The notes under the pieces: model-generated | What the model was told of the DNA's origin: nothing | Databases searched by the model: none | Seen by the model: only the letters and a program-made list of their open reading frames with translations | Position numbers and translations under genes: made by a program | Part shown: positions 5,956 through 58,811 of the stretch, piece after piece | Layout of the letters: each line of letters starts with the position of its first letter | Numbering within the stretch: position 1 is the first letter of the stretch | Source of the DNA: Nemertoderma westbladi | Taxonomy: Eukaryota > Animalia > Xenacoelomorpha | Direction: 5' to 3' | Assembly (NCBI GenBank): GCA_032718475.1 | Contig: JAUCBJ010001051.1 | Span: 1-64,000, forward strand | Length of the DNA stretch: 64,000 bases

Positions 5956-5969
5956 TTTTATTTTTCTAG

Positions 5970-14711: not shown

Positions 14712-14824
14712 CGTGATTGTGTACCGGTAACTCGTTTAGGAAATAAAAATAAATAAATACTTTTACGAAAATAATTAGAACTTTTCAGGAAAACAAAGAG
14801 ACAATGATTGGGAATGTGGTGAAC

Positions 14825-30997: not shown

Positions 30998-32282
30998 TGT
31001 ACGCGCTTTTGAAGACCTTTAGCAGTTTAACCTGCCAAAATTTATATGTCTTTTGGTTTATCAATATACTTTAGAAGATGACAAATATTTAATACCAATA
31101 AACACAACATTAGCAGAAGCCAGCCTAGTGCGCGTCCATTCACCCGCTGGATATACCCGGGAGACTGGATTCTGAGGGCTTAGATTATTATTGCAGTGAA
31201 GCCTACTGTATTATTCGATTGATCGTTAATAAATAATTTCTGACTAATATTATTCACTTTCGGGAAATATTAACAGTTCCTTTAGGACGTGGCGCTCTAT
31301 CTAAGTAAACAGAGATATGACTTATACTAATCACAACGGTAAGTCGGTAAGGCTTATAATTCACGTATGAGGCGCATTCTTTAGGAAATGCTTAGTTATC
31401 AGTCACAATCAGGCACACTACCGGTAACACACAATACTGCTCACTAATTTGCCGACCGTCAATGTATTTTATCATATATAAAGCGAACAGCAATTGACTC
31501 TTGTAGTGCTTATCAAATAGCATTAAATTCAATACAAACCACAACAATATAAGTCGCAATCGCTATATATAACCCGCCTCTCTAACCTGTAGTGTATCAA
31601 GAAAATTGGGAAATTTGGGTTCTTTATAAACGTTCTCCAAATAATCTTCAATCAACTGATATAAAATATGACAACAGTAAAAACATTAAGACGGTAGGTT
31701 AGGATATGATATGAACCGATATGTACAGTGATATGTACTGAGTGTCCAAATTGTGCCGTGATATGAATTGATTTGTGTTATGAATTGCATTGATAACAGT
31801 CATACGCTCTATAATCTTAAGCCTACTAATGTTTCTTTCTAGAGCCGTTGTTTCTGGCTTAGACAGCAATAACAACAAAGTATCAGTAAAAAACTGTAAG
31901 ACTGAACAATCCCAGTATGATCGGCTCAAAGCTCCACATCAACAGAGAAAATCGCTCTGATTGGCTGAAGCCAAACAAAGAACCATGCGTCCAATGGCTG
32001 TTTCCATTTAAGCAACCAGCTGTTAGATGTCGTAATCTGAATCATCACGGCTAAGCTGTGTAAAAGTATTTGCCGTATTGCGGGTTTTTTGCCTTACCAT
32101 GTCCGCTAAAACACGTATATAGAAGAATGACTTTTATGTCCGTTAAAAACACCTGTAACGGTACCTTGCGGGCAAGGGGAATATATATACAGTTAGAGAA
32201 CCCTTTTAGAGTATTCCAGCGCCTAGGGGGAAACTGGATTGCGAAGCAAAGGGGCCAGTTATATCCCACAGAAGCTTTTACA
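30998..32282 (-). repeat. BEL 3' LTR (1285 bp)
   Basis: tgtacgcgcttttgaag...gaagcttttaca; matches 53067-54352. Confidence 0.95.
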
Positions 32283-32360
32283 CCGCTCCCAGAAAATGGG
32301 ATTTGAGTCTATTAATATACAAAAATCACAGTTTCTAATATACGTAAATACTCTAAACAG

Positions 32361-35300
32361 TTAGTCTTTCTTGCGCGGACGGCGTTTACGCAATTTTTTA
32401 AAGCTAGCCAGAGTCCTTTTCTCTTTGGGGCGAGCCACTTTACAAGGAGGGCTATAACTCCGAGGTGAAGGGTGCAATATGATTGCATCAGAGGGTGTAG
32501 GATTATGGTCAGTGTATCCGCCAGTCGAAGTACCGGGTTGATTGACATCGACATCAGGTGAGAGGGGTCTAACGGCTTTGAGAGCTCGTTTCAAGACAGC
32601 CGCTCTGACGGGTCCTTTACTCGTGGTCTGAACAAGGGCCGTGGGTGGACCATAGGCAGTTAGAAACCTCCGGGGTTTAATGGTTCTTTCTAACTCGCGT
32701 TCGCGGGCTCGGTATTCGTAAGGCCGCCGATATACTTCCTGTAACTCTGGGTGTGAGTTAACAAATAAGTCTCCATAGTCCGGATCCTGACGGATATAAT
32801 TGATTAAGTTATAGGAATGAAGGTCGCTAGGATTAACACTCCTGAGAAATTTGCGTACGAATTTGGTTGAAATACATTCTCCGACGCGCTTTATTAGCTC
32901 GTAACTCGATATGCGTGATTTCTGTTCGACCGAGGCGAAGAGATAAGGATGGAATGCATAAACTCCTTCATAAGCGCGTCCGGGATAATAGCGATGGCGC
33001 GAATCACAATGTAAATCAGCGTTCGCTTCCCAAGCTCTGATGTAACGTAGTGTGATCTGTTAAGAATTAAATCAATGTATAATACGAAAGGTAATGAAAG
33101 GTAATATAATAAGATAATATATATGAGAAACGTAAAGCAGAGACAGTAACAGAAAATACTAATACATCCCTGTTACAGCTGAATGCCTAACAGCTGCAAA
33201 CAACTGATACATTTAAGTATAGTAGGTCGTATACAATATAAATCAATAAAGTGAATCTATCTAATTATTAATTAGTCTATCTAGTCTCAGTTCAGAGTTT
33301 ATTGTCTTTTATTGAATATCTTATTCAATGAGTTAATCATAACATTCCCCGTCTTCTCCTTTGTCAAAGGATCTGCCAACATGTCAACAGTTGATACCCA
33401 CTCGATGGGTCGATCATTTCCAAATTGCCTTTGTTCGTTTATCACTTCCCTAACACAGTCTAGGTCTAGTTGTAATCTCTTCTCAGAACAAAGGGATCCA
33501 TTGTTAATACAATTGAAGAGACACCGATTATCAGTAATTAGTTTTATGCTAGTTCTCTTAGAAGTTGCAGGATTAAATTCCGATATCAAACTCCTGAGAT
33601 AGACTGCCTCGTCAACAGCATCGACCATAGATATAGCCTCTGCAGCAAGAGCACTTCTAGTGACGCGCTTTAGTCTATATGACTTCCACCCAATAACAGC
33701 TCTACCCCAGAGTAGAATGTACCCACCCCAAGATGGATTACCAAAGGATGCATCAACATACACTGTTATACAATCGGACATATCTCTTAAGAGTGGAAGT
33801 ATAAATGGCTGGGACTTCACTGTACGAATCAATTTGTTAAGTTTGTTTAAATCAGAGACCGTAGCTGTACTAGTGCATGATGCCAATCGACTCACAGAGA
33901 AGGATATATCTGGGCGACTTGTCGTGCAAAGCCACATAAGTTTACCAACTGCCGTCCTTGCAGTTTCCGACTCACAACCAATTCTGACAGTGTCACTAAC
34001 ATTCAGACACTCTAGTTGATCCACATATTTCGCCTGTGAAATTTCAAATCGGGAATCTCTTTTCCGAATCTGGAGACCTAGAAATTCTACCCATTCGCTA
34101 TTGACCTTTTTAATCTTTCCTATTTTGAATATAGAATCCAACTTTTCTACAATCGCATTAACCATAGATGGAGTTCCAGCCAATAGAACATCATCTACAT
34201 GCAGTCCAATAACCCCCACAACATTATCAACACTTTTGAATATAAACATTGCATTATCCATTTTAGACATTATACCACCAAGTTTCAATATTTCATCCTT
34301 AACCTTTCCATACCATTGTCTCGAAGCCTCTGTTAAACCATAAACACATTTTCGTAATTTCCATAACGTTTTACTACCATACGTCAATGGGACGCCTTTT
34401 GGAGGGATTAAATAAACATCTCGTTGTATCTGATGACCCTGCAAAAAGGCCGTCTTAAAATCAACAACAACTGCCGACCAGTCATCATCACTAGCAATTG
34501 ACAACGCAATTCTCATTGAATACTTAGTTACAGTTGGGGCATAACCTAAGACATCATCTGTATCCTCAAATCCCCTTGCTACTAAACGTGCCTTAGGGTA
34601 CTTCTCGTCCCCATCTCCTTTGTATGTCAATACCCACCGTGTCGAAATCACAGTAGAATTGCCTTTAATATCGTCTTCATTAATTTCTTCAAAAGCATTG
34701 TTGTCAACCCATGATTTATATTCCTTATATTTCGCATTATCAAATTTTGGTGTGTCCTTCTCTTCCTTTGCTCTAACAAACATTGATACAAATCTATCTG
34801 GTTCATTTCGCTGACGTGTCGATCTTCTCAATGGTTCAGAGTTCCCAGGTTGGATAGTTGAGTCTCCTGTTGCACCATGTAAAAGGTCATCAACATTATT
34901 ATCATCTAATTCATCATTACTTTCGGTTTCATCATCATCTGACATGTCATTTTTGCCGTCTACCTGAATTTTTTTACTTTCATGATTTTGCTGTCCTATA
35001 TTTCCTGGAACCTCAGTATTAGAGACAGAAATATCTTGGCTATTATTCCGTCTCAATTCATCTCGATGACAGCGTAGATATCTACAACCATGCTTTACTA
35101 ACACTTCAGTTCCATCTTGACTTACAACACGCGCCGGACCACTCCACCGGCGATTGTTATGATGTCGGAAATATACTGACTCACCTTCTTTAAACGTCTG
35201 GCCTGTTTCTCGTGTAATACATCTCAACGCTCTTCGAATTCGTTCAGAATTTTCCACTTGTGTGTATGCTATTCTTGTTTCCCTGAGACACCTAAGATGT

Positions 35301-38300
35301 TTTTCGAATGTTGTCCCGACAGGTGCTGGTTCCAAAGGTAGTACGTCGTCATTGATTGCTGAATTTATTCTAGGGTTTTTACCGAATACTAATTGATAAG
35401 GAGAAAATCCAGAATTGTTGTGATTACAGTTCTTAGCAAAGCAAGCCATGCGGAGAATTGAATCAATAGTTAAATCTTTCTCTGTCAAACTGACCTTATA
35501 ATATATCTCCTTTATTGTACCATTGTGTCTTTCTACAACACCATTAGAAAATGGGCAATAAGGCACTGTTGAAAGATGTTCAATGTTTAAATAATCACAC
35601 ATTTCTGTGAATGAAGCCGCAGCAAACTCACCACCGTTATCAGTCAATATCGCTCTTGAATTGCCAAATAATGACATCCAGTTATCTAATATACAACGTT
35701 GTATAGTCGTACTTTGCTTATCCATAATTCTTAAAACCATGCTGAAGCGTGTATACATATCAATTATATGTATTGCCCAAAAGGAACCACGTTGCTGGTC
35801 TTTAATATGAGTTAGATCAATGGCCAGCATTTCATTAAATTCATTGGCCATAGGTAGAGTAACTATCGGCTTTGGCTTCATTCGTTTGTATAGTTGACAA
35901 CTTTCACAACTTTCACTGATTTCGACTACATGATTTCTATCAAATGCCTGACCACTGTTGGTTAACAATGAACCCAACTTATCACAGGTCGGATGTCCGA
36001 ATTGGTTATGTAATTTTAGTATTGACTCCTTATTTAAGTTAACAACTAGAACTGAATCGCAGTCACTTAACTTAGAGTTAAACAAATCAATAGTATAGTG
36101 TCCAGACTGAATTTCTTTTAGAGATACCAAGTCACTTCTTACACTCATTGTATGGTTCGTAAAATTAATGATTGCATCCATCTTCTTCAATGATTCAACT
36201 GAAATCAGTAAAGGTAGATCACCTGCAATAATCTCTACCTTTAAGGTATGTTTCTTACCCGCAATCCAAACGGGGATAATCGTACAGAACATAGCCTTGC
36301 ACTGCTCACCACCTCCAAATGTAAATCCTGCATTTGTAGAAAACGTTTCCACCTCAACATCACAATTCTTTCTGATCCAACAACAATACATTGAATACCA
36401 CTTGTAACCTGCCACTGTTTTTGTACAAGCAGTGTCAATTATACCTCTTGGTAAAAAATCATAATCCTTCTCATCCACATGCAGACACAAGGAATGTGAT
36501 GATATAACCATGAACGATGTTGATGGTTGTTCTGCACATTGCTCCTTATGTGGACAATCGCGATACCAATGCATGGACGAATCGCATACAGAACATCTAT
36601 ATGCTGCTGATGGTCCTGGTCCTGATCTCCTAAATTCATTGAAATTATTCCCAATCTGTCGGCCTCGTCCACGCTGATAACCACCACGAAACGATCTACC
36701 ACGATTCCCCCAATTTTGTTTTCTATTCCAAAAACAGCCTTGATTCTGATTGTTCCCATGATTGTCCATGCCTAAGCTCTGCGTCTCAAATACCTCTTCC
36801 GTTTTAATTACTCGATCACATCCTGCAGCTGAAGACATTCCAGAATAAGTTCGAAGTATCGTCGATTTTATATCATTGAACTTCAATGTCGATGATGCAA
36901 GTATCATTCGTCTTTCTCGTTCATCAACATTAGCATTGTACAACAATTCAGAAGCTAAAACTACATCACTGAGAGTCATGTCATATTGTCTCATTTCGGC
37001 ATACAACTTTTCAAATTGCAGAACATAGTCTCTCATTGATATATGTGACTCCCGTCTATTTTCTTTAAATTTCATGTATGCTGAGTAAGCCCTATCATCG
37101 GCTGGCGTTTGAAATGCTTCGTCTAATAGTTGTAAAAGAGTTTCTAATCCACCCTCAACATTTAACTCATGGGCAGTTAGATTCAAACCCCTTTCTTTAG
37201 CGCGCCCAACCAAACTGAGTACCACCATCCCTGCTCTCTTTGGGGCCGGAATATCCGTCACACTACCCCATATTGCCAGCTCTTTCTTCCAATATATGTA
37301 ATCATCCACCTCGGGATCAAAGCGAGGAGGATTCTTTATTGAACTTGTTCTAGACATAAGATCCAGTACTCAAATATTTCAATACAATTTTAAAAATATT
37401 TTTTTTTTTTAATAATTAATTTTATTCATTTAATTACAGACATTAAAATTTACGAATATTTTAATTACATTATTGATCTTTTCACGCTCTGCTACCATGT
37501 TAAGAATTAAATCAATGTATAATACGAAAGGTAATGAAAGGTAATATAATAAGATAATATATATGAGAAACGTAAAGCAGAGACAGTAACAGAAAATACT
37601 AATACATCCCTGTTACAGCTGAATGCCTAACAGCTGCAAACAACTGATACATTTAAGTATAGTAGGTCGTATACAATATAAATCAATAAAGTGAATCTAT
37701 CTAATTATTAATTAGTCTATCTAGTCTCAGTTCAGAGTTTATTGTCTTTTATTGAATATCTTATTCAATGAGTTAATCATAACATGATCATTTCATCTAC
37801 GCTTTCCAAGTCGTGATTAAAAGGGCAATCGAAACTGGCATGTCCCTTTAATTGGCAATGGTGACATTGAGTCATAAATTGAGGGCAAACAGCAAAGATA
37901 TGCAAGTTATTGAGTCTGCAATATGCGCAATAAATTTCCATAGTTGGTTGTTCTTGGAAATAGGAACAGCGGACATTGGTGTCCATGGGCGTATCGTGGT
38001 CTCTCGATGCGCATAACCGACAACGTTGCCTAGAAACATAGTTGGCGTGTCGATAATCGTACGCAGTGAGACACTGTGGACCTTGATACCATTCGATGAT
38101 ATAGTCGTTGTCGCTGTTCCGGGGCGTGATAGGCTGAATCTCCTCAGATTCTAGACATATTGGTTCGTCTTCTAAGTGCATAGATGAGGTGGGCGTGTCT
38201 GTCTCCTCGGGTGGACCTATTGTCTGAATTTCTACGACAGAATAACCGGTGGGGATTCGAGGTCTTTGTATAACAGAGGAGTGCAGGTTCGATATACAAA

Positions 38301-41300
38301 TCTCCTGAAAAATGGCGAATCCAGCGCTATCCAACTTCTCTGCAGCTGAGTCTCTTAGGCTGAGCTTGGTCAAAGCGCGGTCTTTAAATTGGCTATCCAC
38401 GTTGCGGAACGGGGTTAAAAATCGCCGGAAACATTCGAAACGAATGAATTTATTATGTTCATCTAGCTTAGCGAGTTTGGTCCCAAGTATTAATGGATGG
38501 GCGCGTATGGTACGACTGCACACATCGGCTAGCCAACCGGCAAGTGCGGTGTTTTCAAAGATCGTGTATATAGCTAAGGAGGGACGGAGTGGAACACTCA
38601 TGAAGCTATACACGGCGCCAGGTGCGGTCAATGGTCCATCAAAGTATAATCGAGAATAATGGTCTCCGTATACTTGTTGATAGTTAATGGGATTTCCGAC
38701 TTTGAAATTCCATCCGTATTCCTGAAAGGCAAGATGTCCGATGGAAGTCCGTTGCGCCTTTGTAATGTTGCTAGACGTATTAGCATACATGGTGCGGAAG
38801 AAACCTCGACCTTCTGCCCAGGGAGCAATCAGCTGAGTATCAACGAAAGGGTATGGAATGTTCTCCATATTCCGAAAGTCGTTTTGGAGATCTCCATAAA
38901 CAGCTGAGCCGATTTTAAGGATTCTTTCGTTGAATAACATCTCGAGCACGGGTTGGGGTAACATCGATCCATCGATGCCCATGGCCGGTTTGCGTTTGGT
39001 ATCAATGACGTAACGCTGCTCGAGTTCGAATTGTCCATGTCGGAGATTCTTTTGTGTTTCGGTGAGAGTTTCGAATGAATAATCAATCACGTCGGAACAC
39101 GCTCGAGTAAATACGTGGGTAGAACCAGCTAATCCGCGTATGTGGATCATGCGCGTAGTTCCTAGTTCTCCGACTGGAACGCTACCTTCATTATCGTAGG
39201 TGACAACTCCATACATCTCAATAACGTTAAGAGTTTCATTCCACTACTTGGTGGCGTTCTCTAGGGTCATCCCTACTGGATGCCACAAGGTGGCGCATTG
39301 GTTAGCGTCAGGGAGATCACTATACTTCATGTGCCGAGTGGTATACGTCTCCACATTTCCATATCTTTGTATTTTCTCTTCTTCAAATAATACATCTAGA
39401 TTCCAATGGACTAATCGAGTTTTAATAAATCCATCGAGATTATAAGGAGGTTCTATATCTTTCTCGATTCGAGCAATGTTATACGGTTTTCTAAATGAGT
39501 TTACCTTTACTAACTGATCCAGATGTTTCTGCAATTGTTCGAGTTCGACAATGTCTAGAGGATTTATTAGTGGTAGAAACTTTAAATTATGCGTCGGGTC
39601 CTCTGGTTTTATCATATAATATTGAGTCAGATTCACGTAATAAGGGTGGTCTTTAATCCCATAAAACGAGTTCTGTAAAGGTCTAGCGCGTATGTTGACA
39701 TCGTGTACCATACGACGGACAAGATCCGCTCGATTGTCCGGAGGTTCAACGAGTATACCGTCAACACGAGCGGCCTCGATCGGCAGACGCTGTAACATAG
39801 GGGCGTCAGCGATAAGATTTTGCGATCCTATACTGATATCAACCGGTTGAGGTTGTATCGTCGCGAAGAGCTTGTCACCGAAATGTGGAATCATCGAGGG
39901 ATGACGAACGGTTTTAGAGTAGAGATCCGTCATGAGGATTTGAGCTTCAGGTTGGGCTAAAGCGGCTTCTTCTCTTTCTTCCAGTTTCGTGTGTTTCTCC
40001 TCGAGTAGAATTTCTTCCGCTTGTCTCTGTAAGCGTCCATCTAAGAATTCTTGTAGAGAATACGTGCGTCCAAGCTCGATGTCTTCCTTGAGGTTTCGAA
40101 TTTCTCTATCGAACTGTGGTAAGGCTAACTCCTTCACCGATTGGACTTGTTGTTGTAATTTACGTTTCTCTAAACAATCTTGTGTTCCCTTTCCGATTTT
40201 CTGTCGAATGGCGTCCAAAGCGTTTCTTATAACACTCTCCTCGACTTCCGTAGCGGGTTGTATCGGGTTTAATCCTGGACGATTGTAAGGATCAAAGGGC
40301 GATATTAACTGCCCGCGTCCCAATCCGGCTAAGTAGGATGGGCGAATGTCTAACGAACCCACTACCGGAGCACCACCGATTAATTGTTCGGGTAACACTA
40401 AGTCTTTGAACAGGGAATATAGTTCGGGAGGATCAGTGATACTGTTAGGATCAAGAGTTTGAGGTCTCACTAAGGAATGAGGAGGCCTGACCGAGTATTC
40501 CGGAACTCTGATCATGGGTTTATTCAGTGATCGTTTAAGACGAGCGATCGTGGGTGGTACGTCGAACAGATTTCGCTCGAAACTCCCGTAAGTGTAACGC
40601 GTAAAGCTGTGTTTAGCGCAATGTCTCCGCGGATGTTTGTGTCTTTCAGTTTGTTGGTTGGGTCTAGGGCATTTGTCACAATAATACCAAAGACGTACGT
40701 CTTGTAGAGGAAACGCGGGTGATCGTTCTCCAGTTTTGCAATATTCTTCCATTTGTTCAAAACTGTCTGGGATAACAGGTAGTGGACGATCTGCGGTAAG
40801 ATACATCATAGTGAAATAGAGCCGTTTGAGTTCTGCCATAGGGTCGTGATGTATACCTTGAGGATATCGAGTCTCTAGGTTCTGCTGACTGGCGATGTTG
40901 AGATAAGTTTCTCTCAAAAATTCTAGGTATTCGTTGAAGTCAATGCGTTTATCTGGTTCTTCAACGTTTTCTCTTTCCAGTCTATTACGAATAGAATTTT
41001 CGTGATCTATTCTCGGTTTATCGTTACGACTCCGCTGGGTATGATATTTAAATAGAACCATTTCCCTCTCTGTATCTACATCGTCTGTATCATGTAAATC
41101 GATAGGATGGCTGGTAGTTAAGAAGTCCATATACGTACCATTACGATTCGTATAGCGAGTGGTGAATTTTCGATAGTCCAATTCACGCGCGAGTTGCTCT
41201 CGGGACATCGGCGGTTCGATATAACGACCATCGTCCTCCGTAATGGTTGGATCGGTTTCACCGCGTATCAAGCTATCCACAAATGCTTGTAAAGGTAGAG

Positions 41301-41346
41301 TATATCGCTCCCTGATACCAAGATCATCTTCTATCAACTCCATCAT
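32361..41346 (-). CDS. BEL accessory ORF (~1417 codons reconstructed) with DEDDy 3'-5' exonuclease-like domain and zinc knuckles; interrupted by one TAG (39244-39246) and the Copia insertion
   Basis: The 700-aa and 479-aa ORFs are in frame across ATK*WNETLNVIEMYG. Removing the Copia and one TSD continues EMITLRYIRAWEAN... open to RKRRPRKKD* at 32361. Motifs: GVVTYDNEG, LPQPVLEMLFNERILKIGSAVYGDL, FVDTQ, SIGHLA; CRLCASRDH, CAYC...H...C, CHHCQLKGHASFDC. Confidence 0.8.
33058..37784 (-). mobile_element. Intact Ty1/Copia element, GalEa-like, nested in the BEL accessory ORF
   Basis: 287-bp LTRs at 33058-33344 and 37498-37784 with no difference noticed; TGATC TSD; primer-binding site (PBS) TGGTAGCAGAGCG; polypurine tract GGAGAAGACGGGGAA. 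Confidence 0.95.
33299..37357 (-). CDS. Copia gag-pol (gag, CCHC, protease, integrase, RT, RNase H)
   Basis: CSVCDSSMHWYRDC; IIDTAC; LHNQFGH..C..C; TDNGGEF; NGVVER; KARLVARGF; YGLTEASRQW; HVDD; DMLADPLTK. Integrase precedes RT. Confidence 0.95.
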   Translation of the reverse strand: MSRTSSIKNPPRFDPEVDDYIYWKKELAIWGSVTDIPAPKRAGMVVLSLVGRAKERGLNLTAHELNVEGGLETLLQLLDEAFQTPADDRAYSAYMKFKENRRESHISMRDYVLQFEKLYAEMRQYDMTLSDVVLASELLYNANVDERERRMILASSTLKFNDIKSTILRTYSGMSSAAGCDRVIKTEEVFETQSLGMDNHGNNQNQGCFWNRKQNWGNRGRSFRGGYQRGRGRQIGNNFNEFRRSGPGPSAAYRCSVCDSSMHWYRDCPHKEQCAEQPSTSFMVISSHSLCLHVDEKDYDFLPRGIIDTACTKTVAGYKWYSMYCCWIRKNCDVEVETFSTNAGFTFGGGEQCKAMFCTIIPVWIAGKKHTLKVEIIAGDLPLLISVESLKKMDAIINFTNHTMSVRSDLVSLKEIQSGHYTIDLFNSKLSDCDSVLVVNLNKESILKLHNQFGHPTCDKLGSLLTNSGQAFDRNHVVEISESCESCQLYKRMKPKPIVTLPMANEFNEMLAIDLTHIKDQQRGSFWAIHIIDMYTRFSMVLRIMDKQSTTIQRCILDNWMSLFGNSRAILTDNGGEFAAASFTEMCDYLNIEHLSTVPYCPFSNGVVERHNGTIKEIYYKVSLTEKDLTIDSILRMACFAKNCNHNNSGFSPYQLVFGKNPRINSAINDDVLPLEPAPVGTTFEKHLRCLRETRIAYTQVENSERIRRALRCITRETGQTFKEGESVYFRHHNNRRWSGPARVVSQDGTEVLVKHGCRYLRCHRDELRRNNSQDISVSNTEVPGNIGQQNHESKKIQVDGKNDMSDDDETESNDELDDNNVDDLLHGATGDSTIQPGNSEPLRRSTRQRNEPDRFVSMFVRAKEEKDTPKFDNAKYKEYKSWVDNNAFEEINEDDIKGNSTVISTRWVLTYKGDGDEKYPKARLVARGFEDTDDVLGYAPTVTKYSMRIALSIASDDDWSAVVVDFKTAFLQGHQIQRDVYLIPPKGVPLTYGSKTLWKLRKCVYGLTEASRQWYGKVKDEILKLGGIMSKMDNAMFIFKSVDNVVGVIGLHVDDVLLAGTPSMVNAIVEKLDSIFKIGKIKKVNSEWVEFLGLQIRKRDSRFEISQAKYVDQLECLNVSDTVRIGCESETARTAVGKLMWLCTTSRPDISFSVSRLASCTSTATVSDLNKLNKLIRTVKSQPFILPLLRDMSDCITVYVDASFGNPSWGGYILLWGRAVIGWKSYRLKRVTRSALAAEAISMVDAVDEAVYLRSLISEFNPATSKRTSIKLITDNRCLFNCINNGSLCSEKRLQLDLDCVREVINEQRQFGNDRPIEWVSTVDMLADPLTKEKTGNVMINSLNKIFNKRQ

Positions 41347-42970
41347 ATCTGCTATCTGAGTTTATTAATATCAAATAAGTTTATACTTAGGCGAGCGGGC
41401 GTCGCTGCCTATTTCTTTTTGCCCCCGGACAGTGGGATTCTCAGCGCCGATATACCGTCGTCGCGGTGTTTACGCCAACATGTAGCAACAGCACGACAAC
41501 GATAACCGGCACAAGTCACTCCACTGTCCGTCCCAAAGGCTTGGATCCACTTAGGTTCTTTTTATAGGAAAGTTGGGCTATTTTTACAATTGCGACTAGC
41601 TACTGTAAACATACTTTAGTAGTAACATTCACCTATCAACGCACAAATTCAACACAACTGCAACAAACTGCACACATTCGGGCCATTTGTCCGTTAGTCA
41701 GTGCCTTCCAGAATGTCACTGTATTTATTATGTATCCTTGGATACTAGCGGTGCGCTATTTATTCCCTATGCTATTCAATGGGGCATGCCTTCTATTGTT
41801 CTTTTAACTCACTTCTAATTCTAGCGTGGTTGTTGCCATGGTGACATTATGGAAAGCTAGCGGTAGAATTAGGGTAATTCTCATGCATACAGATCTGGGA
41901 TGCTATTTAATAATAATTCTTTAATTGTCAATATCCTCTCTATGTATGATTTTATTAATTTTATCGGCTATTGACTATATGTTGGAGATTTTCGCACTCT
42001 AATACACTCAATAGGATGAATCTCCGCTCCCATGATCTATTAATTAATGGAATTTTGGGAATGTTATAAATTGTACAAAATGACAATTTATGAAATTCAT
42101 TTGATGTATGAATTTAAATTTATTCCCGTGAATTTTATTATTTGGTGTTAAAATTGACACAATTTGATTCCAGAGCAGGTCTGGGGACATAGGATCCTTA
42201 ATTCTATGAAATTTGTCTTTAAGAGTATCGGTAAGTGCTACGATATCTTAATCGACTAGAATTGTTAACTGATCTGAATTTTACAGATTTTACTAAATAT
42301 TAAATTAATATTTAAGATGGGCACCGATTTATTCCAGAACTTGTCTGGGGACGTTAACCACTGATTCTAGAATTTGTCTTTCAAGTATATCGGTGGGTGC
42401 CGCGATATCTTAATCGACTAGAATTACAGATGGTCAAAAGTTTAACAGATTTGTTTGCGTTTTACGCTACTGTTATAAGGACATCACGCTACTATATGTA
42501 TTATTTAATATAAGGTAGAAGAGCAATATCGCACGAAGCAATGTCAGTGTGAAGAGGCAAGTCGTTTCCAAGGTCTACCCAGAGCTTGGTTTAGCCGAGA
42601 CACGAGGATCTGAACTTTGCATTCCTAATACTCTGCCTACCAATAATACTTGAATATAGTAGTGGCTTTATTGTACTTTAAGAAGTACGGACATTTCATC
42701 TTACTGTAGTCACGTATTTATAATATGATACGGACAGTAAGGAAAGAGAAAATAATTATTTCTCGCCGTCGCACTAAATATATATTATAAGTAATTACGT
42801 ACATAATAAACACTAATATATTGCACTAATCTACTAAATAATCACTAAAATAACATTCTACTAAATAAAAATTGAATAAAAACGATTATAATAAAGTACA
42901 TAATAAAGTTCGCATATAAAATGTAATAAAATAGATAAAATAATATAGTCATACACCCACTCCAGACGTA

Positions 42971-45900
42971 TCACGTTTGGGAGTCCCTAGCTGTTTGAGG
43001 AATTAGGGAGGTGGTCGTAGGAAGAGTGTCTTGCTTTCCATAGTTTCCGGAGAGTTCTCTGTCTCTTTCCAGTAAACATAAACGACCAACTGGGCGATTG
43101 AGTTGTTGCGTCTCAAAGATTATGCCGGGCTTCTTGAAGTTACGCCGCATAACGATGAGTTCTACTGAGCGCACTAAACCATCCTCCGAGATATGGGTCT
43201 CGATGATACGACCTGTCTGCCACCGTTTACGTGGGAGGTCTGGATCTACAATAAGTACCATATCTCCGGCGCTGACGTTTTCTTGCTGCGCAAACCACTT
43301 AGTTCGAAGTTGTAGCGTGGGCAGATAATGTTTCTCGAAATGGTCAGCGAAACGACGGGATAGCAACTGCATAAGTTGCCAAGTTCGACGGCAGTATTCG
43401 TCTCCGTCGGCAATCTCCGATCGTGGGAGCATGGCTACCGGTTTCTTCAGTAGGAAGTGCGCAGGTGTTAGCGCTTCCAGGGAATCGGGACTCGATGAGA
43501 CTGGCATAAGCGGTCTCTCGTTGAGATAGGCAGCTATTTCCTCCATTAACGTCCGCAAAAGTTCGTCGGTGAGATACGCACGGCATGGCACTATAAAGTG
43601 AAATGCGGTCTTAACACTTCTAATTAATCTCTCCCAACTTCCTCCCCACCAAGGGGCGTCGGCGGCATTGAAGGTCCAGCTAGATGCTGTTATCCTTAGC
43701 TGGTCGTCCACCTGTCTTTGGTTCCAGTCCTTTACGTAAGCCTGTATTTCGTTGTTGGCACCAATGAAGTTCGTTCCCTTGTCCGATCTCATGGTATTAC
43801 TCGTACCGAAGCGAGCGATCTGTCGTCGTAAACTTAAGACGAAGCTGTTGGTAGATAGATCGTTCACCATATCGAGATGGATGGCTCTGCAAGTCATGCA
43901 CACGAAGATGACACACCATCTCTTGACTATAGTCCTCGCACGATATACTTCAATAGGGCCAAATAAATCTACACCAGTATTGGTAAAAGGTGGTTCATAG
44001 AAGCTTACTCGTTCCCTAGGTAATTCTGCCTCTCGCTGTGTTAAAGGCCTACTGAATACTTTCCTACAGGGTATGCAGTTCCTAAGAACTTGGTTCAGAG
44101 CTCTACGGGGTTTATCAAAATAATAGCGAGTTCGAATTTCGCTAAGAACTCGTTCTCTACCAGCATGATAAAGCTTACTGTGAACATCTACAATCATCTT
44201 GATTTGTACTTCAAGATTTCTAATGAGTATGGGGAATTTAGTGTCAAAGGATAAGGGTGCATTGGTGAGCCTTCCTCCAACACGTATCAACCCATCTATC
44301 ATTGTGCTAGAGAATCGATCCCTTAAGCGCATCTGCGGATTTCTCAACAACAGGCAATACTTTTCGGAATCCTCATAGCATTGCAGGAGTCTCAGTATCT
44401 GTTTATTGGTCTCTTCATGCTCCTGGTGACTAATTTTCTCCTTTAGAAAACTGTCAGATACCTTATATTTAGGTAAGTTTTTAATAACATGAACTTGTGC
44501 AGATGTCAATGGAGCGTTATCACTAGTGGTCTTCGTCCTGGAGTAGTGATGATGAAAGCATCTCTTTAAATATGTGACGGCTTTACAGAGCCGATTCCAG
44601 GAACTGTAGTGATGCATCGCTCTCTGCAACAGGGGTGAGATTCCTTGCGAGACGTCTGGTATTCCAGATTTCCAATCTCTATCTCGAATTTCCGCAACAG
44701 ACTTATTTATGGCGAGGGATTGTGGATCCGAATCATCGTTTCCGGAAACCTGTAATACAGATAGATCGATAGTCGGTTTAAATAACTTCGATTTACTCGC
44801 CCGGGTTTTAGGTTTGACTGTCTCCGCTCCCTTGGCTTGTCTAATTTCCGCCGTAGTAAGGTGAGGAGGCCATTCATCCTCTTCCTTGCTCAGGAAGTCG
44901 GGTCCACTCAACCAGTCGGGAGTATCTATCAGTTCCTGTGGAGTTGCTCCCCTGGAGGCGATATTGGCTGGATTAATCATACCAGGGCAATGTCTCCATT
45001 GATCTATCTTTGTGCGACTAAGAATAATAGCTACTCTGTTAGTAACAAAAACGCTGAACTGACAGACTTCATTGGTCAGATACTCCAACACGAGTAAAGC
45101 GTCGGTCCAATAAACTGTCTTCTCCAGTGGATAGTCGATTTGTTCCGTTACGTTCCGGCCGATGGCTGTAGCGTATAAAGCCGCCTTTAACTCCGCTCGA
45201 GGAACCTTTAACTTGTTGTTAATCAATGCCTTAGAGGTAACCAAGGCGACTTTGATTCCCTCCGGAGTTTCGACTCGCAGATATGCTACTATACCTATTC
45301 CCATGTCGCTGGCGTCTCCAAACACATGGAGTTGATAGGAATACGTAGGAAGAACATGGCCAAAATATGCACGGGAAATTATAAAGTTCTCGATGGCAGG
45401 TAGAGAATCTTCCCATTTCATCCATTTCTTTAACAATTCTCCCTTAAGCGGATCGTCCCATGAGTGGTTTTCAAGCCACATTTGTTGTACTAAACTCCGA
45501 GCAATCAATATAACTGGGCTAATGAATCCCAATGGGTCGAAATAAGTGCTCAGGATACTTAAACAAATCCGTTTGGTCCGAACTGGATTATCTCGCTGTT
45601 TTAACTGAAAAAACAGGATATCTCTTTCCGTGTCCCACTTCAAGCCAAGCGTCTTGGTTTCAGGAAGATCGTCCTTTATTAAGTCTAAGTCTTTCGCTCC
45701 GCGATCTTCTACCGGTATGGCTTCCAGAAACTCACGGGAGTTGCTAGTAAATTTCGTCAGCCGAAATCCACCTCTTTTCAAACACTCTACCATTCCTTTC
45801 GCGACAGCTATGGCTTCTTCTACTGCTGGAAGGGACCTTAAATTGTCGTCCATGTATATATTACGTTTTATATTGTCTATCACTTCCTTTGAGAAGGAGT

Positions 45901-48900
45901 CTCTGTTGTCATTCGCAGTGGTTCGCACTACGGAGCAGGCGTTGGAAGGGCTAGATATGATCCCAAAAGCCTGGATGGTCATCCAGTACTCTACCGGTTT
46001 CTGGTTGAGGTCTCCTTCAGGCCACCACAGAAATCTCAGGCTGTCTCTATCTCTATCCAGCGCCTTGACTTGTAAGAACATTCCTTCGATATCGGAAGCG
46101 AACGCGATGGAATATTGTCTTAATCTCAAAAGTATTCCCAACAAAGATTGGAGTAAGTTGGGTCCGGGTAACAACTCGGAATTAAGGGATTGGCCCATAT
46201 ATAGAGCAGAGCCATCGAATACGACTCGTACTTCATGGGGTTTACCGGGTTTGGGAACGTAATGATGTGTTAAGTAATACGTTCTCTCGGTCACTGGTGT
46301 TCCTTCCGGTACTAGCTCCGCGTATCCCTTTGTTATAAATTTCTTCAGCTGAGTTTGATACATTTCTTTGGCTGAAGTATTAGCCGTAAGGCGTCGATGT
46401 AATTGAGCGATTCTTTTCTCTGCCAAGGGTCTGTTATTTATAAATCTAGGTTCTCGTTTTCGAAATGGCAGGCCGATTTCATACCTACCTTGGTCTTTTA
46501 AAAAACGTGTAGTTGTTTCCTGGATTTGCTTGTCTCTTTCTTCTTCTATCGATAGAGCCTTATCATATGAATTGGGCTCTACCAGTTCCTGAGTAAAGAA
46601 TCGTACGGCCAGTTCGTCCCGAGTTCTAGCGTTGCAGCGCTCTATCTCATCGTTGAGTTCGTCATTGTAAGCGATGGGTTCCGATGGGCGAATCAGTTGA
46701 CACAGGTTCACTTCATCTTTCCAAGTTTGGTTTTCTGTAAGGAGGTCGATGGTGTTTTCTTCATCGAATAGTTGATAAGTGTCATCGTTATCTGAGGAGT
46801 ATGGTGTTCCCTCAGTTAGTTCGTCCACCTCACTGTTCTCCTCGCACCAATCACTCACTTGGTATACTCGTTCTTGGGGTCTTCTCTCTTCGAGAGTCCT
46901 GCGGGAAGGGCCAGTAAAGTACCAACCTACTCTAGTTCTTACCGCATAGGGTTGCAGAGGCTGCGGTTGAGCAGGCCGTTTCTCCAATGTTTCGAGCGCC
47001 TCGTGCGCGTTTTGGCCGATGAGTATTTGCACTCCAGGATAATCTGTTTGGAATCGAGGTACCTTAAGATGTTGGATGCTCTCATCCTCGTCCCAATTAT
47101 ATAGGTCTGCTTGAGTAGTAGCGAAGTTCTTTATAGCCACCATTTTTACCGACCTGATACCTTGTGATCCTGATTTATCCTGGGGAGTGGACAACACACC
47201 TACATAGTACTCTGCCGTTAGGGTAGATTTCCAAACCTGCATAATTCCTGACATATTCAATTTTGTCCGGAATTTGGGTTGTCCAGCAAAGATGTCTTCG
47301 GCTAATTCTTGATCTATGAATGTTCCTGTGCTGCCGGAGTCAAGGAGTGCATTCACTATGTAACTGTGGTTTGGTCCGTGAACTCTTACTTGCACTACAG
47401 GAAATTCTCTGATTCCTACATTGGAAGTTGGAGTTTTCCAAGATGGTTGTTTGTCAAAGGTAGTTGGGGGAAACTCATTGGTGGTGTCCTTTTCATAAGT
47501 AAGTGCTCGATACACTGCGGTATTAATTAGATAACAGGATTCGTTGGTGTCGGAGAATTCGTCAGTATAGAATCCTTCCATCTCAGACTCCTGATCAGTG
47601 TCATTTACATCACTGAATTGGACATGCAGTTCGGGCTCGCTTACCTGACTCTGTTTGTCTCGTTCGAACTCACTGTGTAACAAGATGTGATGTTTCGCGC
47701 CACACTTTTCACACTTTATGTCGGAGTAACAGGTTCGCCGTTGGTGTCCTGGTCTGAGGCAATTATAGCATAACCGCTTGTCCCACACAACTGTACGTCT
47801 ATCTACAAGGGATTTCTTTAGAAATTCCGCACACGCACTCAAACGGTGGGTCCCGTCGCACAGCGCACAGTTAGGTTTTATGTTACTTACTTTACCTTGG
47901 GTAACCTGATGCACTCTCGTTCTTTCTTCGGGCTTTCTTCCGCGCATTCTGTTAGGAGACTGAGGAGGGGTCTTGGCAACCTGTTCTCTCCTATCGTGGT
48001 TTCGAGCCTTGTATTTACTTACATCTTTTGAGTTTTTGTCAACGTAGTAAGATCTCTCAGTATCTTTCCCGCTGTCCTCTTCTTGCGAAGCTTGGCTTTC
48101 GCCGTCGTCAGTGTAACACACCGGTGTTACTCTTCTCCTAGAAGCGGGTTTCTCACTTACCTTATTTTCCGATGTTTTCTCTCTGGACTGCTTGATGAGT
48201 TGTAGTTTCACCTCACCATCTAAGAAGGTCATGAGATCCGCCATGGTAGGACTTCGTCGTTGTTGTTCATTCATGTACAACACTTTCTTGTCCCAGCGCG
48301 TACATACTCCACCCTTTGGTAAAGTAGAGACTACGGCTCCAATAACCATGGAACTCTGGTATTCATGAGACTTACCTAACCAGTCCAATTGTCGACAGAT
48401 CTCCTGAATTTCATCGGAAAACTCTATAATCCCGCTACTAAGGAAGTGTCGGGGGGCTACTAGTTTTGCATACAAATACTTAGCTATGTTATCCTTGTTA
48501 CCATACCTGATGTTTAATGTATCCCAAACTTGTCTCAATCCTTCTGGATGTCCAATAAACTTTAACGCCATTAACTTGGGAGGTCCTTCCAAGCACTTGA
48601 TGAGGAATCTAAGTTTCTCTCCGTTAGATAGTACAGAGTTTTGTATGCTATCTTTGTAATATTCGTTGAAAGGTAACCATTTCATCTCATCTCCATTGAA
48701 TTTGACGATCTCTCCCACTTTGACCGCTTGGCGGGCTTCTGTTCTAGCCATCTGACGCGTAAAGCTTTCTTGGGCCATCGTGTTATTTAATATCGAATTA
48801 TCGGTATATAAATTTCTCGGATCATTATCAGGTCTATAGGGAATATCATTAACAACAGGTCTATATTCACCCTTAATAGGGTTTGTTATAGGGGTTTCTA

Positions 48901-51130
48901 CTTCACTAGCAGTATAGATGCGTGTAGGCTCCACACCTTGCGCATGTAATACTTCAGACCTAACAGGTTGGCACAATGTTACAGGGGGTATTGGTATGCC
49001 CTTTTGTATATTGACTAATTTGTCGCGTTCTAGCGCGATACTTTGCTGCACTTCTTGCAATTCGGCCCTACCTTCCCTTACTGTTCCCTTAAGCTGGTGG
49101 ACAGTCTCCTGCATCTGTCCGAGCAGGAGGTTCATCCCCCGCCGTCCCTCCTCTACCCACTCAACCGCCGAAGCGGGAGTCGCCAACATTGTAGCGGGCT
49201 GACGCGGGACGACGGGAGACAAATCTTTGATTCCTCTCTCAATGCTCAGGACAGGGGTATTCGCATGGACTGTTCCACCGGGTACAGGCAGTGTAGTACT
49301 GTGTAAGGGGAATTTAGAGCTAAGCTCTGGAAGTACAGGGGTCTCTAGCACAGAAGTGACTTTGGGAACAACAGGCCTAATTATCTCAGGTTCATCAACT
49401 ATGGTAGGGAGTCTGTTGACAGTAATAATTCGGTCTGTGGGTTCTGTACTACCTACTGTTGTGCTAGCTAATTGTCTTCTAACAGCCGGGGGCAAATCAG
49501 GCAATTTATGACGGTGAGATGTTTTTCTACGCCTGCTTAGACGAGATCTATTTCCTCCACCTTCAGGATCGGTGGTATCCCCTTCCTCCGATGATGTATA
49601 GCCTTGGCGTTTGGAAGTAGATAGACTCATCATCTGCATTCGACTGTCTGTTAACTGCCTACCGATGCTGTCTTGCGTCTCCTGCAGATTTTCCAACTCC
49701 AGCTGGGCGGTCTCCTCAGACGCTCTCTGTACTGCTTCTGCCACTGCCTCCGCCGCCTTTCTTTCCGCCTTTCTGTCTGCTTCTGCCTTGGCCTCTGCTG
49801 ACTTTATTTCCGCTTTTCTGTCTGCTTCTGCCTTTGCCTCTGCTGACTTTATTTCCGCTTTTCTGTCTGCTTCTGCCTTTGCCTCTGCTGACTTTATTTC
49901 CGCTTTTCTGTCTGCTTCTGCTGTTGCCAATGCCGCTGCTATTGCTGCTGCCTTTTTGTCTTCAATCCGCCTTTTCTTTACTTGTTCTTCTTGGACTTTA
50001 GTGAGGCGGAGTTTTTCATCAAATTCAGCTTGGTTAGCAGCTAACATTTCAGCATCGATTGAGTCTAACACACGCTGGGTTCCTTCACTATTAGGGGAAA
50101 GTCCAGACAGTCGTCGCCTCAACTCTTCGTCTCCTAGGAATCGCTGATAGTCGGACAGGTAAATGTCGATGGCGTCTCTCGTTCGTGGCTTTTCTGCGGT
50201 CTCTTCGCCTTCCACTTGAGAAAGGGTGGCATCGGTTGGTTCTTCATAAGTTAGTCTCTCAGACAGCTGGGATTTCCACTGGTCCGTTTCTTGCACTTTG
50301 CGACCTACCCGCTGGAACCAAGTCTTAACAGAAACCTGCAGCGACGTGTCCTGTCTTCTTTTGGAAGTTTCCTCAAAGGCTGATAGGATTATTCTAATAC
50401 GTAGGGTTCTTTCACGTACTTGATATAGCAGCTCTTCCTGCTCTTGAGGTCCCTGTGGTTGTCGAAACAGTTGTTCTTCTAATCGCTCTAAGGAGCCGAA
50501 GAACCCTTGCACATATCCTGCTGCCGACCTCTTCCAAACAGCTGGATCCATTGTATCTTTAGTCACTCCCATCCGGTGGATATCTTCCCAAGTAGCTTCG
50601 GACAGATCTAATGGGAGTCCGGGTCCAGGAAAGTTCCATTGTGATTCGACAATAGACATCAATTCTTCCCTGGCGTATCCCGCATAATTATCTTGGGTCG
50701 CTCTCTTATTTCTCGCCCAATCGGCTTGATGTTCCTCCACCGCAATCAATATAGTGGTTAGCACTGCGGCAGGAAGGGTGAGAAGGGGGTCCGAGTAGGC
50801 TGTAGCCGCCATCTGCAATCCGCGTTCGGGGGTCAGCTCAACAGTATCCGAACTACTGGAGCTATCGGATCGCTGGGAACAAGTTTCTTGACTAGGCGGT
50901 TGCTGCTGTGGGACAGCTGCTTCCTGGTTCCGTTTGACTTGGGCCCGAGTGCCGATGATAGACCTACGATGTTGGATTAGCCTAGGGTCTGATACTACTG
51001 GTGGGGGAATGACCTTTCTTTCAGTAGGAGGTGAGCTGAACTCCTTTCTTAATCGCTCCACACTCCTATCTGTGTCACAGATGGTTGTATCGATTAGACT
51101 ATCTGACAGGTTTTGCTGAGTGTCAGACAT
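42971..51130 (-). CDS. BEL/Pao gag-pol polyprotein, 2719 aa
   Basis: Triple Cys/His knuckle (CALCDGTH, CYNCLRPGH, CEKCGAKHHILLH); ALLDSGS protease; RVVFDGS, SDIEGMFLQV, YMDD RT; FGDAS, VPRAEL RNase H; GVDLFGP, SDKGTNF, GGSWERLI integrase. Confidence 0.97.
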   Translation of the reverse strand: MSDTQQNLSDSLIDTTICDTDRSVERLRKEFSSPPTERKVIPPPVVSDPRLIQHRRSIIGTRAQVKRNQEAAVPQQQPPSQETCSQRSDSSSSSDTVELTPERGLQMAATAYSDPLLTLPAAVLTTILIAVEEHQADWARNKRATQDNYAGYAREELMSIVESQWNFPGPGLPLDLSEATWEDIHRMGVTKDTMDPAVWKRSAAGYVQGFFGSLERLEEQLFRQPQGPQEQEELLYQVRERTLRIRIILSAFEETSKRRQDTSLQVSVKTWFQRVGRKVQETDQWKSQLSERLTYEEPTDATLSQVEGEETAEKPRTRDAIDIYLSDYQRFLGDEELRRRLSGLSPNSEGTQRVLDSIDAEMLAANQAEFDEKLRLTKVQEEQVKKRRIEDKKAAAIAAALATAEADRKAEIKSAEAKAEADRKAEIKSAEAKAEADRKAEIKSAEAKAEADRKAERKAAEAVAEAVQRASEETAQLELENLQETQDSIGRQLTDSRMQMMSLSTSKRQGYTSSEEGDTTDPEGGGNRSRLSRRRKTSHRHKLPDLPPAVRRQLASTTVGSTEPTDRIITVNRLPTIVDEPEIIRPVVPKVTSVLETPVLPELSSKFPLHSTTLPVPGGTVHANTPVLSIERGIKDLSPVVPRQPATMLATPASAVEWVEEGRRGMNLLLGQMQETVHQLKGTVREGRAELQEVQQSIALERDKLVNIQKGIPIPPVTLCQPVRSEVLHAQGVEPTRIYTASEVETPITNPIKGEYRPVVNDIPYRPDNDPRNLYTDNSILNNTMAQESFTRQMARTEARQAVKVGEIVKFNGDEMKWLPFNEYYKDSIQNSVLSNGEKLRFLIKCLEGPPKLMALKFIGHPEGLRQVWDTLNIRYGNKDNIAKYLYAKLVAPRHFLSSGIIEFSDEIQEICRQLDWLGKSHEYQSSMVIGAVVSTLPKGGVCTRWDKKVLYMNEQQRRSPTMADLMTFLDGEVKLQLIKQSREKTSENKVSEKPASRRRVTPVCYTDDGESQASQEEDSGKDTERSYYVDKNSKDVSKYKARNHDRREQVAKTPPQSPNRMRGRKPEERTRVHQVTQGKVSNIKPNCALCDGTHRLSACAEFLKKSLVDRRTVVWDKRLCYNCLRPGHQRRTCYSDIKCEKCGAKHHILLHSEFERDKQSQVSEPELHVQFSDVNDTDQESEMEGFYTDEFSDTNESCYLINTAVYRALTYEKDTTNEFPPTTFDKQPSWKTPTSNVGIREFPVVQVRVHGPNHSYIVNALLDSGSTGTFIDQELAEDIFAGQPKFRTKLNMSGIMQVWKSTLTAEYYVGVLSTPQDKSGSQGIRSVKMVAIKNFATTQADLYNWDEDESIQHLKVPRFQTDYPGVQILIGQNAHEALETLEKRPAQPQPLQPYAVRTRVGWYFTGPSRRTLEERRPQERVYQVSDWCEENSEVDELTEGTPYSSDNDDTYQLFDEENTIDLLTENQTWKDEVNLCQLIRPSEPIAYNDELNDEIERCNARTRDELAVRFFTQELVEPNSYDKALSIEEERDKQIQETTTRFLKDQGRYEIGLPFRKREPRFINNRPLAEKRIAQLHRRLTANTSAKEMYQTQLKKFITKGYAELVPEGTPVTERTYYLTHHYVPKPGKPHEVRVVFDGSALYMGQSLNSELLPGPNLLQSLLGILLRLRQYSIAFASDIEGMFLQVKALDRDRDSLRFLWWPEGDLNQKPVEYWMTIQAFGIISSPSNACSVVRTTANDNRDSFSKEVIDNIKRNIYMDDNLRSLPAVEEAIAVAKGMVECLKRGGFRLTKFTSNSREFLEAIPVEDRGAKDLDLIKDDLPETKTLGLKWDTERDILFFQLKQRDNPVRTKRICLSILSTYFDPLGFISPVILIARSLVQQMWLENHSWDDPLKGELLKKWMKWEDSLPAIENFIISRAYFGHVLPTYSYQLHVFGDASDMGIGIVAYLRVETPEGIKVALVTSKALINNKLKVPRAELKAALYATAIGRNVTEQIDYPLEKTVYWTDALLVLEYLTNEVCQFSVFVTNRVAIILSRTKIDQWRHCPGMINPANIASRGATPQELIDTPDWLSGPDFLSKEEDEWPPHLTTAEIRQAKGAETVKPKTRASKSKLFKPTIDLSVLQVSGNDDSDPQSLAINKSVAEIRDRDWKSGIPDVSQGISPLLQRAMHHYSSWNRLCKAVTYLKRCFHHHYSRTKTTSDNAPLTSAQVHVIKNLPKYKVSDSFLKEKISHQEHEETNKQILRLLQCYEDSEKYCLLLRNPQMRLRDRFSSTMIDGLIRVGGRLTNAPLSFDTKFPILIRNLEVQIKMIVDVHSKLYHAGRERVLSEIRTRYYFDKPRRALNQVLRNCIPCRKVFSRPLTQREAELPRERVSFYEPPFTNTGVDLFGPIEVYRARTIVKRWCVIFVCMTCRAIHLDMVNDLSTNSFVLSLRRQIARFGTSNTMRSDKGTNFIGANNEIQAYVKDWNQRQVDDQLRITASSWTFNAADAPWWGGSWERLIRSVKTAFHFIVPCRAYLTDELLRTLMEEIAAYLNERPLMPVSSSPDSLEALTPAHFLLKKPVAMLPRSEIADGDEYCRRTWQLMQLLSRRFADHFEKHYLPTLQLRTKWFAQQENVSAGDMVLIVDPDLPRKRWQTGRIIETHISEDGLVRSVELIVMRRNFKKPGIIFETQQLNRPVGRLCLLERDRELSGNYGKQDTLPTTTSLIPQTARDSQT
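49760..49922 (-). repeat. In-frame 45-bp tandem repeat in the gag N-terminal extension
   Basis: (AEADRKAEIKSAEAK) x ~3.5. Confidence 0.9.
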
Positions 51131-54352: not shown

Positions 54353-54548
54353 ATGGTCATAAATTCGTATTTGCGTCACTATACTGGCAGTCTGGCAGTG
54401 GCATACTGGTACCTATTTTGTCTGCGGACTTAGCGAGAAAGCTATGATTAATTAAAAAAATAAATACTACAAAATAAAATGGCAATATTTACATTACTGT
54501 ACATTACTAACCTAAACTACTGTATACTGTATACCATGCTGCCATATG

Positions 54549-58625: not shown

Positions 58626-58811
58626 TGCGTTGACTGTTGTACTGTACCGCAGCGCCGGTACAGCTGTAGGCTACATGCTGACTATACAGCTATACATAAT
58701 ATTATTATATTATTATATATTTAAATACATTATATATATATATATAAAAAAAAAGGTAAAGAAATTGATGTAACAGCTGATAGAAAAAATGTAAAGTAAA
58801 TGAATTATATA

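Follow-up and report, generated by a model that had tools for sequence, protein, structure and literature searches.

The closest described counterparts of the gene considered here come from bdelloid rotifers, where the long terminal repeat (LTR) elements Juno and Vesta carry a third open reading frame (ORF3) coding for a DEDDy nuclease, a type of gene that they share with the Athena/Terminon Penelope-like elements (Rodriguez et al. 2017, PMC5408684); the case is repeated in reviews (PMC6431247, PMC5718144, PMC6338049). We have analysed a comparable gene in Nemertoderma westbladi, within a 64,000-nucleotide (nt) stretch of contig JAUCBJ010001051.1, hereafter the window, to which all positions refer. 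It is an accessory gene of a BEL/Pao retrotransposon on the minus strand, it lies between pol and the 3′ LTR, and it is interrupted by a nested Copia element. Its central part, most likely a DEDDy/RNase D-type domain accompanied by zinc knuckles, is under purifying selection across a many-copy family. Why retroelements carry DEDDy nucleases has been an open question since 2017, the year of their description in low-copy rotifer families, for which selection was not tested; many diverged copies, a signal of selection, deletion derivatives and a different superfamily make this question testable.

As in Juno and Vesta, a gene for a likely RNase D-like DEDDy nuclease stands downstream of pol, in the env position, codes for no membrane segment and keeps the acidic residues with a single Asp-to-Glu change. 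Unlike in those elements, the carrier is BEL/Pao and not gypsy-like, and the motif reads D-E-D-E against the rotifer DEED, the two being likened by description only; neither the DEED variant nor the gypsy-like or Penelope-like carrier of the rotifer pool is found here. The 1,417 codons, the three knuckles, the 700 residues without relatives, the many-copy family and the purifying selection set it further apart. What is new in comparison with the rotifer cases is hence the carrier superfamily, the size of the gene, the knuckles and the evidence for selection, whereas the arrangement itself, for which the initial annotation suggested novelty, is already published for bdelloid LTR elements.

A second counterpart is TbRND, the trypanosome mitochondrial RNase D, in which a 3′-5′ Exo domain is likewise followed by CCHC fingers; these bind single-stranded RNA and raise cleavage, and over-expression of the enzyme depletes guide RNAs (Gao et al. 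2021, PMC7797062). TbRND is a host enzyme of ~380 residues with four fingers near the domain, whereas the present protein belongs to a mobile element and has three knuckles ~170 residues away; PDB sequence searches gave no significant match to TbRND structures. Captured 3′-5′ exonucleases are also described in Dada DNA transposons (PMC3706591), inside the transposase and not as an LTR accessory gene, and as ExoN in nidoviruses and arenaviruses (bioRxiv 2021.02.01.429129), where it is a viral proofreading or immune-evasion protein. Among belpaoviruses, Atlas virus and Cer13 (PMC9094657, PMC535339) have an extra coding region 3′ of the integrase, as is the case here. Those regions encode membrane fusion glycoproteins, whereas the present accessory protein has neither a membrane segment nor a signal peptide. 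The work of Malik and colleagues from 2000 may perhaps show an exonuclease domain in Cer13 of C. elegans, for which a literature search and the available text of PMC9094657, PMC535339 and PMC11662393 gave no confirmation. No paper on a DEDDy gene in BEL/Pao was found, the available text of PMC2774666, PMC13524379, PMC9094657, PMC535339 and PMC11662393 included, in a search that covered subscription and older literature and supplements poorly.

The accessory gene and its copies

Three ORF pieces on the minus strand (41361-39244, 39243-37777 and 33059-32361, stop-to-stop) form one reading frame once the Copia and one copy of its target duplication are removed and a single stop is passed, in line with the initial annotation. 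Arithmetic on the piece lengths, with the Copia LTR ending at 37784, gives 700 codons, the stop and 716 codons, that is 1,417 codons plus the final stop; the third piece, earlier put at 77 residues, measures ~230 codons from stop to stop. A spacer of 1,624 nt separates the pol stop from the start of the frame, the end of which lies 78 nt from the 3′ LTR.

Other copies were seen as assembled contigs of four public runs (X1, X3, X4 and X5; five of seven runs hold part of the stretch), and both breaks are absent from them. The stop at 39246-39244 occurs in none of the covering contigs when the whole region is compared (22, 20, 4 and 1 in the four runs), and its site is read otherwise by 23, 21, 5 and 3 contigs when the nuclease region is compared. 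Programmed read-through and a natural two-ORF layout were rejected, as no covering contig of these four runs has the stop. Contigs join straight over the Copia in X1 (6), X3 (4) and X5 (1), skipping 4,732 bases, i.e. the Copia and one TGATC duplication; X4 has a loose end into the far flank. LTR, spacer and accessory gene are deeply covered by contigs, the interior of the Copia much less so. Within 921 bp of the nuclease region, 2,528 contigs of X1 and 1,267 of X3 match at 80-100% identity, contig depth not being the same as copy number; the BEL/Pao family is large, diverse and many-copy. No listed contig runs from pol to the accessory gene, and we infer the linkage of the two in other copies from the even contig cover of the stretch. 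Two deletions recur and show that dead derivatives exist as well: one of 2,804 bases, in contigs of X1, X4 and X5, takes out the nuclease domain, and one of 209 bases, in contigs of X1, X3 and X5, lies near the start of the accessory gene.

Throughout the family, purifying selection acts on the nuclease region. Of the 198 differences over 38380-39300 (921 bp), the 40 with the best support include 31 at third codon positions (p=1e-8). With the stop site left aside, 32 of the 39 listed sites are silent, six non-silent and one ambiguous, where 29% silent would be expected (p=3e-12); the dN/dS ratio, the calculation of which had been proposed at the outset, is ~0.08 as a crude estimate from these 39 sites. 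None of the best 40 of 198 differences alters a catalytic codon, and no indel at a 10% share was seen in the 921 bp; over the whole region, 11 of the best 12 of 96 indels fall within LTR or spacer, and a single one affects the accessory gene. At three of the six non-silent sites, at least 99% of the depth disagrees with the window copy, so these changes belong to its own lineage. Selection on codons 1-700 is only thinly supported: 8 of 17 listed sites are third-position, in a list dominated by changes private to the window copy. A nuclease region that is selected in a many-copy family is therefore no one-off passenger. Together with the absence of the breaks in other copies, this bears out the gene as a feature of family members and not a host gene transduced once.

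The carrier, which spans 54352 to 30998 on the minus strand (18,623 bp once the nested Copia is subtracted), belongs to BEL/Pao (Belpaoviridae), judged by its domain order and termini: it has a single gag-pol frame in the order protease, reverse transcriptase (RT), RNase H and integrase, with Pao-specific domains (Pfam matches PF03564, PF05380 at 3e-36, PF17921 and PF18701), TG...CA LTRs, a short target duplication (ACCAT on both sides) and three Gag knuckles. A single substitution and a 1-bp gap separate its two LTRs (99.85% identical), which indicates a recent insertion. Despite this identity, the region 30998-42970 has many changes, several of them non-silent, that are private to the window copy relative to all compared contigs; decay of the gene in a sub-lineage that remained mobile, or an origin of the window from a different population, may account for them.

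The env position raised the question of an envelope gene, which the initial annotation had answered in the negative. The highest 19-residue hydropathy of the accessory protein is 1.2 and its N-terminus is acidic; no membrane segment by this measure and no signal peptide were found, which supports the view that the gene is not env.

The nuclease-like region and its relatives

A DEDDy fold in the nuclease region is highly probable in our estimation, and we rate the fold above the activity. The motifs quoted in the initial annotation are all in place: ExoI with D718/E720 at 39195-39187, ExoII with D819 at 38892-38890, the DTQ motif at 38847-38833 (FVDTQ 834), SIGHLA at 868 and the ExoIII variant Y927-x3-E931 at 38568-38554, in which Glu replaces the Asp of the family. 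The three Cys/His knuckles and the basic tail were found as well (Table 1). The nuclease-like part takes up ~230 of 1,417 residues, about one sixth of the protein, so that the ‘giant’ exonuclease of that annotation is better seen as a likely nuclease-like region in a large gene.

A HMMER search over 1.84 billion representatives returned a sole relative (P0002, 648 residues, E=5e-6), which aligns to residues 775-942 at 29% identity. P0002 is a singleton from a 9,449-bp ENA contig. It consists of ExoI (IDVE), ExoII (KVGSNIKAD), VLDTQ, ExoIII, a low-complexity linker, three knuckles and a basic tail, and thus shares with the accessory protein the layout of nuclease-like region, three knuckles and basic tail. 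In both, the DxE of ExoI and the Asp of ExoII stand in order and in family-like context, whereas ExoIII has YxxxE for the YxxxD of the family, with the position kept and the residue changed. The PL-x6-Y-x3-acidic spacing of ExoIII is common to both proteins and E. coli RNase D, with Glu for Asp in the first two. The piece after the Copia gave no BLAST match to P0002.

Further pointers to RNase D came from comparisons of profiles. Aligned as a pair by hhalign, the accessory protein and P0002 matched E. coli RNase D at E=4e-5, over ExoII and DTQ, and fungal domains at E=6e-8. When single sequences were compared with 80 close RNase D proteins by local hhalign, the alignment was confined to ExoII-DTQ (E ~0.002). 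The NCBIfam RNase D model TIGR01388 gave 16.9 bits (E=0.0029), far under its cut-off of 299. The top ESM Atlas matches of both proteins are PF01612, at 0.85-0.86 and as leads only, with 10 of the 10 that have a family in agreement; the best cluster for P0002 combines euglenozoan PF01612 with CCHC, and the second is EXD1-like. For the knuckles, the best PDB match is Air2 (E=0.079), and those of P0002 match HIV NC (E=1e-4). The DEDDy identity claimed by the initial annotation is thus made likely by the ordered motifs and by several weak pointers to RNase D, and qualified by the lack of a Pfam match and by the YxxxE of ExoIII.

A pattern scan of metagenomes gave 158 matches, seven of which were extended by tblastn; three of the four scanned pass the PF01612 cut-off and one matches WRN structures, support that is partly circular as the pattern was derived from the query. 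The seven (L001-L007) are WRN-like DEDDy domains in soil metagenomes, in genes that appear to bear introns and to be of fungal type, and are possibly parts of DNA transposons.

Recent capture of a host Rrp6, EXD1, EXD2, WRN or Mut-7 gene is ruled out, since a strong match would be expected in the HMMER search and none was seen. A word-index protein search found none among 2,852 candidates with the window piece and, with P0002, only P0002 itself among 7,989; a two-sequence profile run among longer proteins likewise recovered only P0002 (one of 7,995). Negative results came from locus scans (0 of 128, 0 of 315 and 0 of 62), from scans of viruses for reference DEDDy sets (0 of 36; 0 of 16) and from tblastn against phages, and PHROGs held nothing useful for the accessory protein. 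For residues 1-700, no relative was found in Pfam, PHROGs, NCBIfam or the HMMER search, the ESM Atlas not having been searched with them.

Candidate roles of the accessory protein

As the leading candidate, though one short of probable, we propose that this selected non-membrane gene has as its core a likely RNase D-type 3′-5′ exoribonuclease that acts in trans on short host silencing RNAs. The domain would trim or destroy short host RNAs, for example the PIWI-interacting RNAs (piRNAs) that silence the element, while the three knuckles would grip single-stranded RNA and feed it to the active site, as in TbRND. The protein would be expressed from its own spliced RNA, and its basic tail would serve nuclear import; among the joints listed for contigs of the four public runs, none is of the GT-AG type. 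A trans-acting trimmer of RNA 3′ ends is the simplest reading because the Exo domain is paired with CCHC knuckles, the tail is basic, the gene stands separately behind a long spacer and derivatives without it exist. Action in trans is suggested by the contigs, from three runs, that have lost the domain through the 2,804-base deletion, and an RNA substrate by the DTQ motif, which is as in RNase D, by the Atlas cluster of euglenozoan PF01612 with CCHC and by the TbRND layout. Silencing suppression, which the initial annotation had put forward, is plausible and would, if true, represent an element-encoded enzymatic counter to the piRNA defence of animals.

Several points weigh against such a role. 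The 3′ ends of mature piRNAs are protected, which leaves only precursors or unmethylated RNAs as easy targets. The domain was missed by Pfam and PDB sequence searches and no profile score exceeds a curated cut-off; AlphaFold models reach a predicted local distance difference test (pLDDT) of only 31 and 29, from alignments of one or two sequences, and the Atlas matches are leads. The Glu in ExoIII may mean that activity is lost or changed. The fungal matches stem from a query-derived pattern and are WRN-like, which leaves room for a DNA substrate, and half of the protein is unexplained. Finally, Rodriguez et al. did not find DEDDy ORFs to be clearly associated with copy number (PMC5408684).

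The site of reverse transcription priming, on which the initial annotation is silent, suggests another possible substrate and role. No tRNA-type site follows the 5′ LTR; instead, the 11 nt after it are exactly complementary to LTR positions 481-491, and the pairing stops precisely at the LTR edge. Such complementarity was found in 4 of 5,000 LTR shuffles and for 8 of 20,773 interior 11-mers. In a fold begun at the 11-nt segment, the pair-wise pairing probability is 0.67-1.0, and a 27-nt hairpin follows the primer-binding position. Rfam gave no matches and no tRNA was detected at the default threshold, so there is no sign of a tRNA mimic encoded by the element. About 100 nt upstream of the segment stand CCAAT boxes and, judged by consensus, an initiator-like TCAGTC; they suggest that the segment is not at the start of the RNA and that its 3′ end must therefore be made. 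Tf1 and sushi elements are similar in having no tRNA site and in the pairing of 11 post-LTR nt with an LTR segment (PMC7175516, PMC6317226). They differ in being Ty3/gypsy (some Copia), in using the first 11 nt of the RNA as a primer cut by RNase H and in having no accessory nuclease.

The accessory protein could, in this setting, mature the primer: an LTR-derived RNA would pair over 11 nt with the site after the 5′ LTR, with the knuckles as annealing agents, and its protruding 3′ end would be cut back by the nuclease as far as the duplex, leaving a 3′-OH exactly at the LTR edge. The perfect complement ending at the LTR edge, rare in shuffles and controls, the promoter-like motifs upstream of it, which leave a 3′ end to be made, and the known trimming of structured RNA ends by RNase D-type enzymes (PMC5408684) speak in favour. 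Tf1, however, primes itself with 11 nt that are made by its own RNase H alone (PMC7175516), and a primer site of this kind is missing from the Penelope-like elements that carry DEDDy ORFs. That this type of domain occurs in Penelope-like as well as LTR elements (PMC5408684) speaks for a general role, such as the blunting of small-RNA defence, more than for one in LTR priming. We regard primer maturation as unlikely, and a shade less likely still that the family has abandoned tRNA priming and supplies a primer-maturing enzyme of its own, with knuckles that anneal and an RNase D-type domain that trims to the 11-bp duplex. If true, primer maturation would be a third start of reverse transcription, beside tRNA priming and the RNase H cut of Tf1, and the first concrete job for the DEDDy ORF3s of retroelements.

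The last motif of the pol RNase H (~44950-45100, approximate) reads NPANIASRG, with Asn at a position where BEL elements usually carry Asp. The Asn may be peculiar to this copy or point to a variant enzyme, and it bears on how a self-primer is cut.

To a similarly low degree we can envisage a catalytically weak or dead RNA-binding adaptor, the N-terminal half of which would link element RNA to host export, transport or particle assembly, much as EXD1 and Maelstrom work while lacking nuclease activity. The replacement of the ExoIII Asp by Glu in both known members, the second rank of the EXD1-like cluster for P0002, the small share of the nuclease in the protein and the work of inactive DEDD derivatives in piRNA pathways (PMC5408684) would fit this. 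Yet four acidic positions and the ExoIII Tyr remain acidic and Tyr, respectively, in two proteins that are only ~29% identical, and none of the best 40 of 198 listed differences changes these residues.

We think it improbable that the domain is a WRN-like 3′-5′ exonuclease that trims the ends or flaps of complementary DNA in strand transfer or integration. Its ExoII segment is nearest to fungal WRN-like domains, and the DEDDy domain of Dada is thought to process cleaved 3′ ends (PMC3706591). The DTQ motif and the knuckles, in contrast, point to RNA, and both the element ends and the 5-bp target duplication are ordinary for BEL elements without the gene.

That the motifs are coincidental and the region has an unrelated fold would agree with the low pLDDT values and the absence of a match above a curated cut-off, but we see little chance of it: several methods of different kind indicate PF01612/RNase D, and the ordered motif pattern occurred in none of 20,000 shuffles of the query, an optimistic figure as the pattern was written after the sequences had been seen. 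Least likely of all is a proofreading factor for the RT of an unusually long RNA (~18 kb), which the initial annotation had also offered; we know of no such domain in longer LTR elements such as Ogre. The element does measure 18.6 kb without the Copia, and proofreading by ExoN goes together with large genomes in nidoviruses (bioRxiv 2021.02.01.429129), but the gene stands apart from pol and itself accounts for much of the added length, and the family is highly diverse, with the 2,528 contigs on 921 bp in one run.

Features of the element and its surroundings

Positions of the features of the element are compiled in Table 1.

Table 1 Features of the BEL/Pao element and its accessory gene in the window
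Feature	Positions	Strand	Remarks
5′ LTR	53067..54352	-	TGTA...TACA, 1,286 bp; target duplication ACCAT at 54357-54353
Candidate self-primer, 11-nt LTR segment	53862..53872	-	LTR position 481-491; 3′ LTR twin at 31803-31793
Primer-binding position after 5′ LTR	53056..53066	-	No TGG tRNA-type site
Open gag-pol frame	42971..51130	-	~2,720 residues: DUF1759, three Gag knuckles, protease, RT (YMDD), Pao RNase H, integrase, DUF5641
Two CAG trinucleotides upstream of accessory ATG	41349..41360	-	Possible splice acceptor, from sequence only
Accessory codons 1-700	39247..41346	-	One Cys/His cluster near codon 223-247; no homologue found
In-frame stop	39244..39246	-	In none of the covering contigs from four public runs
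Likely DEDDy/RNase D-type domain	38520..39230	-	Motif order, profile and hhalign pointers, selection
Three Cys/His zinc knuckles	37825..38022	-	Residues 1109, 1140 and 1161
Nested Copia	33058..37784	-	Identical 287-bp LTRs; TGATC duplication at 37789-37785 and 33057-33053; tRNA-type TGG primer site
Accessory last ~230 codons	32361..33052	-	Ends in basic tail resembling a nuclear localisation signal
3′ LTR	30998..32282	-	1,285 bp; target duplication ACCAT at 30997-30993

The 1.9-kb leader of the BEL/Pao element contains 38-bp repeats with ACCGGT palindromes (52838-53004), and the very long N-terminus of Gag contains 45-bp repeats (49723-49956) that encode an Ala/Glu/Lys coiled coil. The nested Copia is intact and young; its LTRs read TGTT...AACA and its primer site is TGGTAGCAGAGC, which is typical of the GalEa clade.

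At least 4.1 kb are duplicated at 99.85% with a period of 8,296 bp (51612-55705 and 59908-64000), through either a tandem duplication or an assembly artefact. The duplicate includes another 5′ LTR, which shares the flank of the first, together with 1.45 kb of the leader, and ends at an RTE fragment (58713-59907); RTE fragments are also present in the window. A Polinton-like element occupies 1876-6410 on the plus and 10219-14735 on the minus strand, with inverted repeats at 1-226 and 15087-15533; it encodes a protein-primed polB (PF03175) with an endonuclease VII-like finger, as well as several unknown ORFs, and is interrupted by a LINE fragment at 9129-9932. Exons of a host CacyBP/SIP gene with Siah-interacting, CS and SGS domains were identified at 19821-21077 on the minus strand, adjoined by a proline-rich repeat at 19250-20082.

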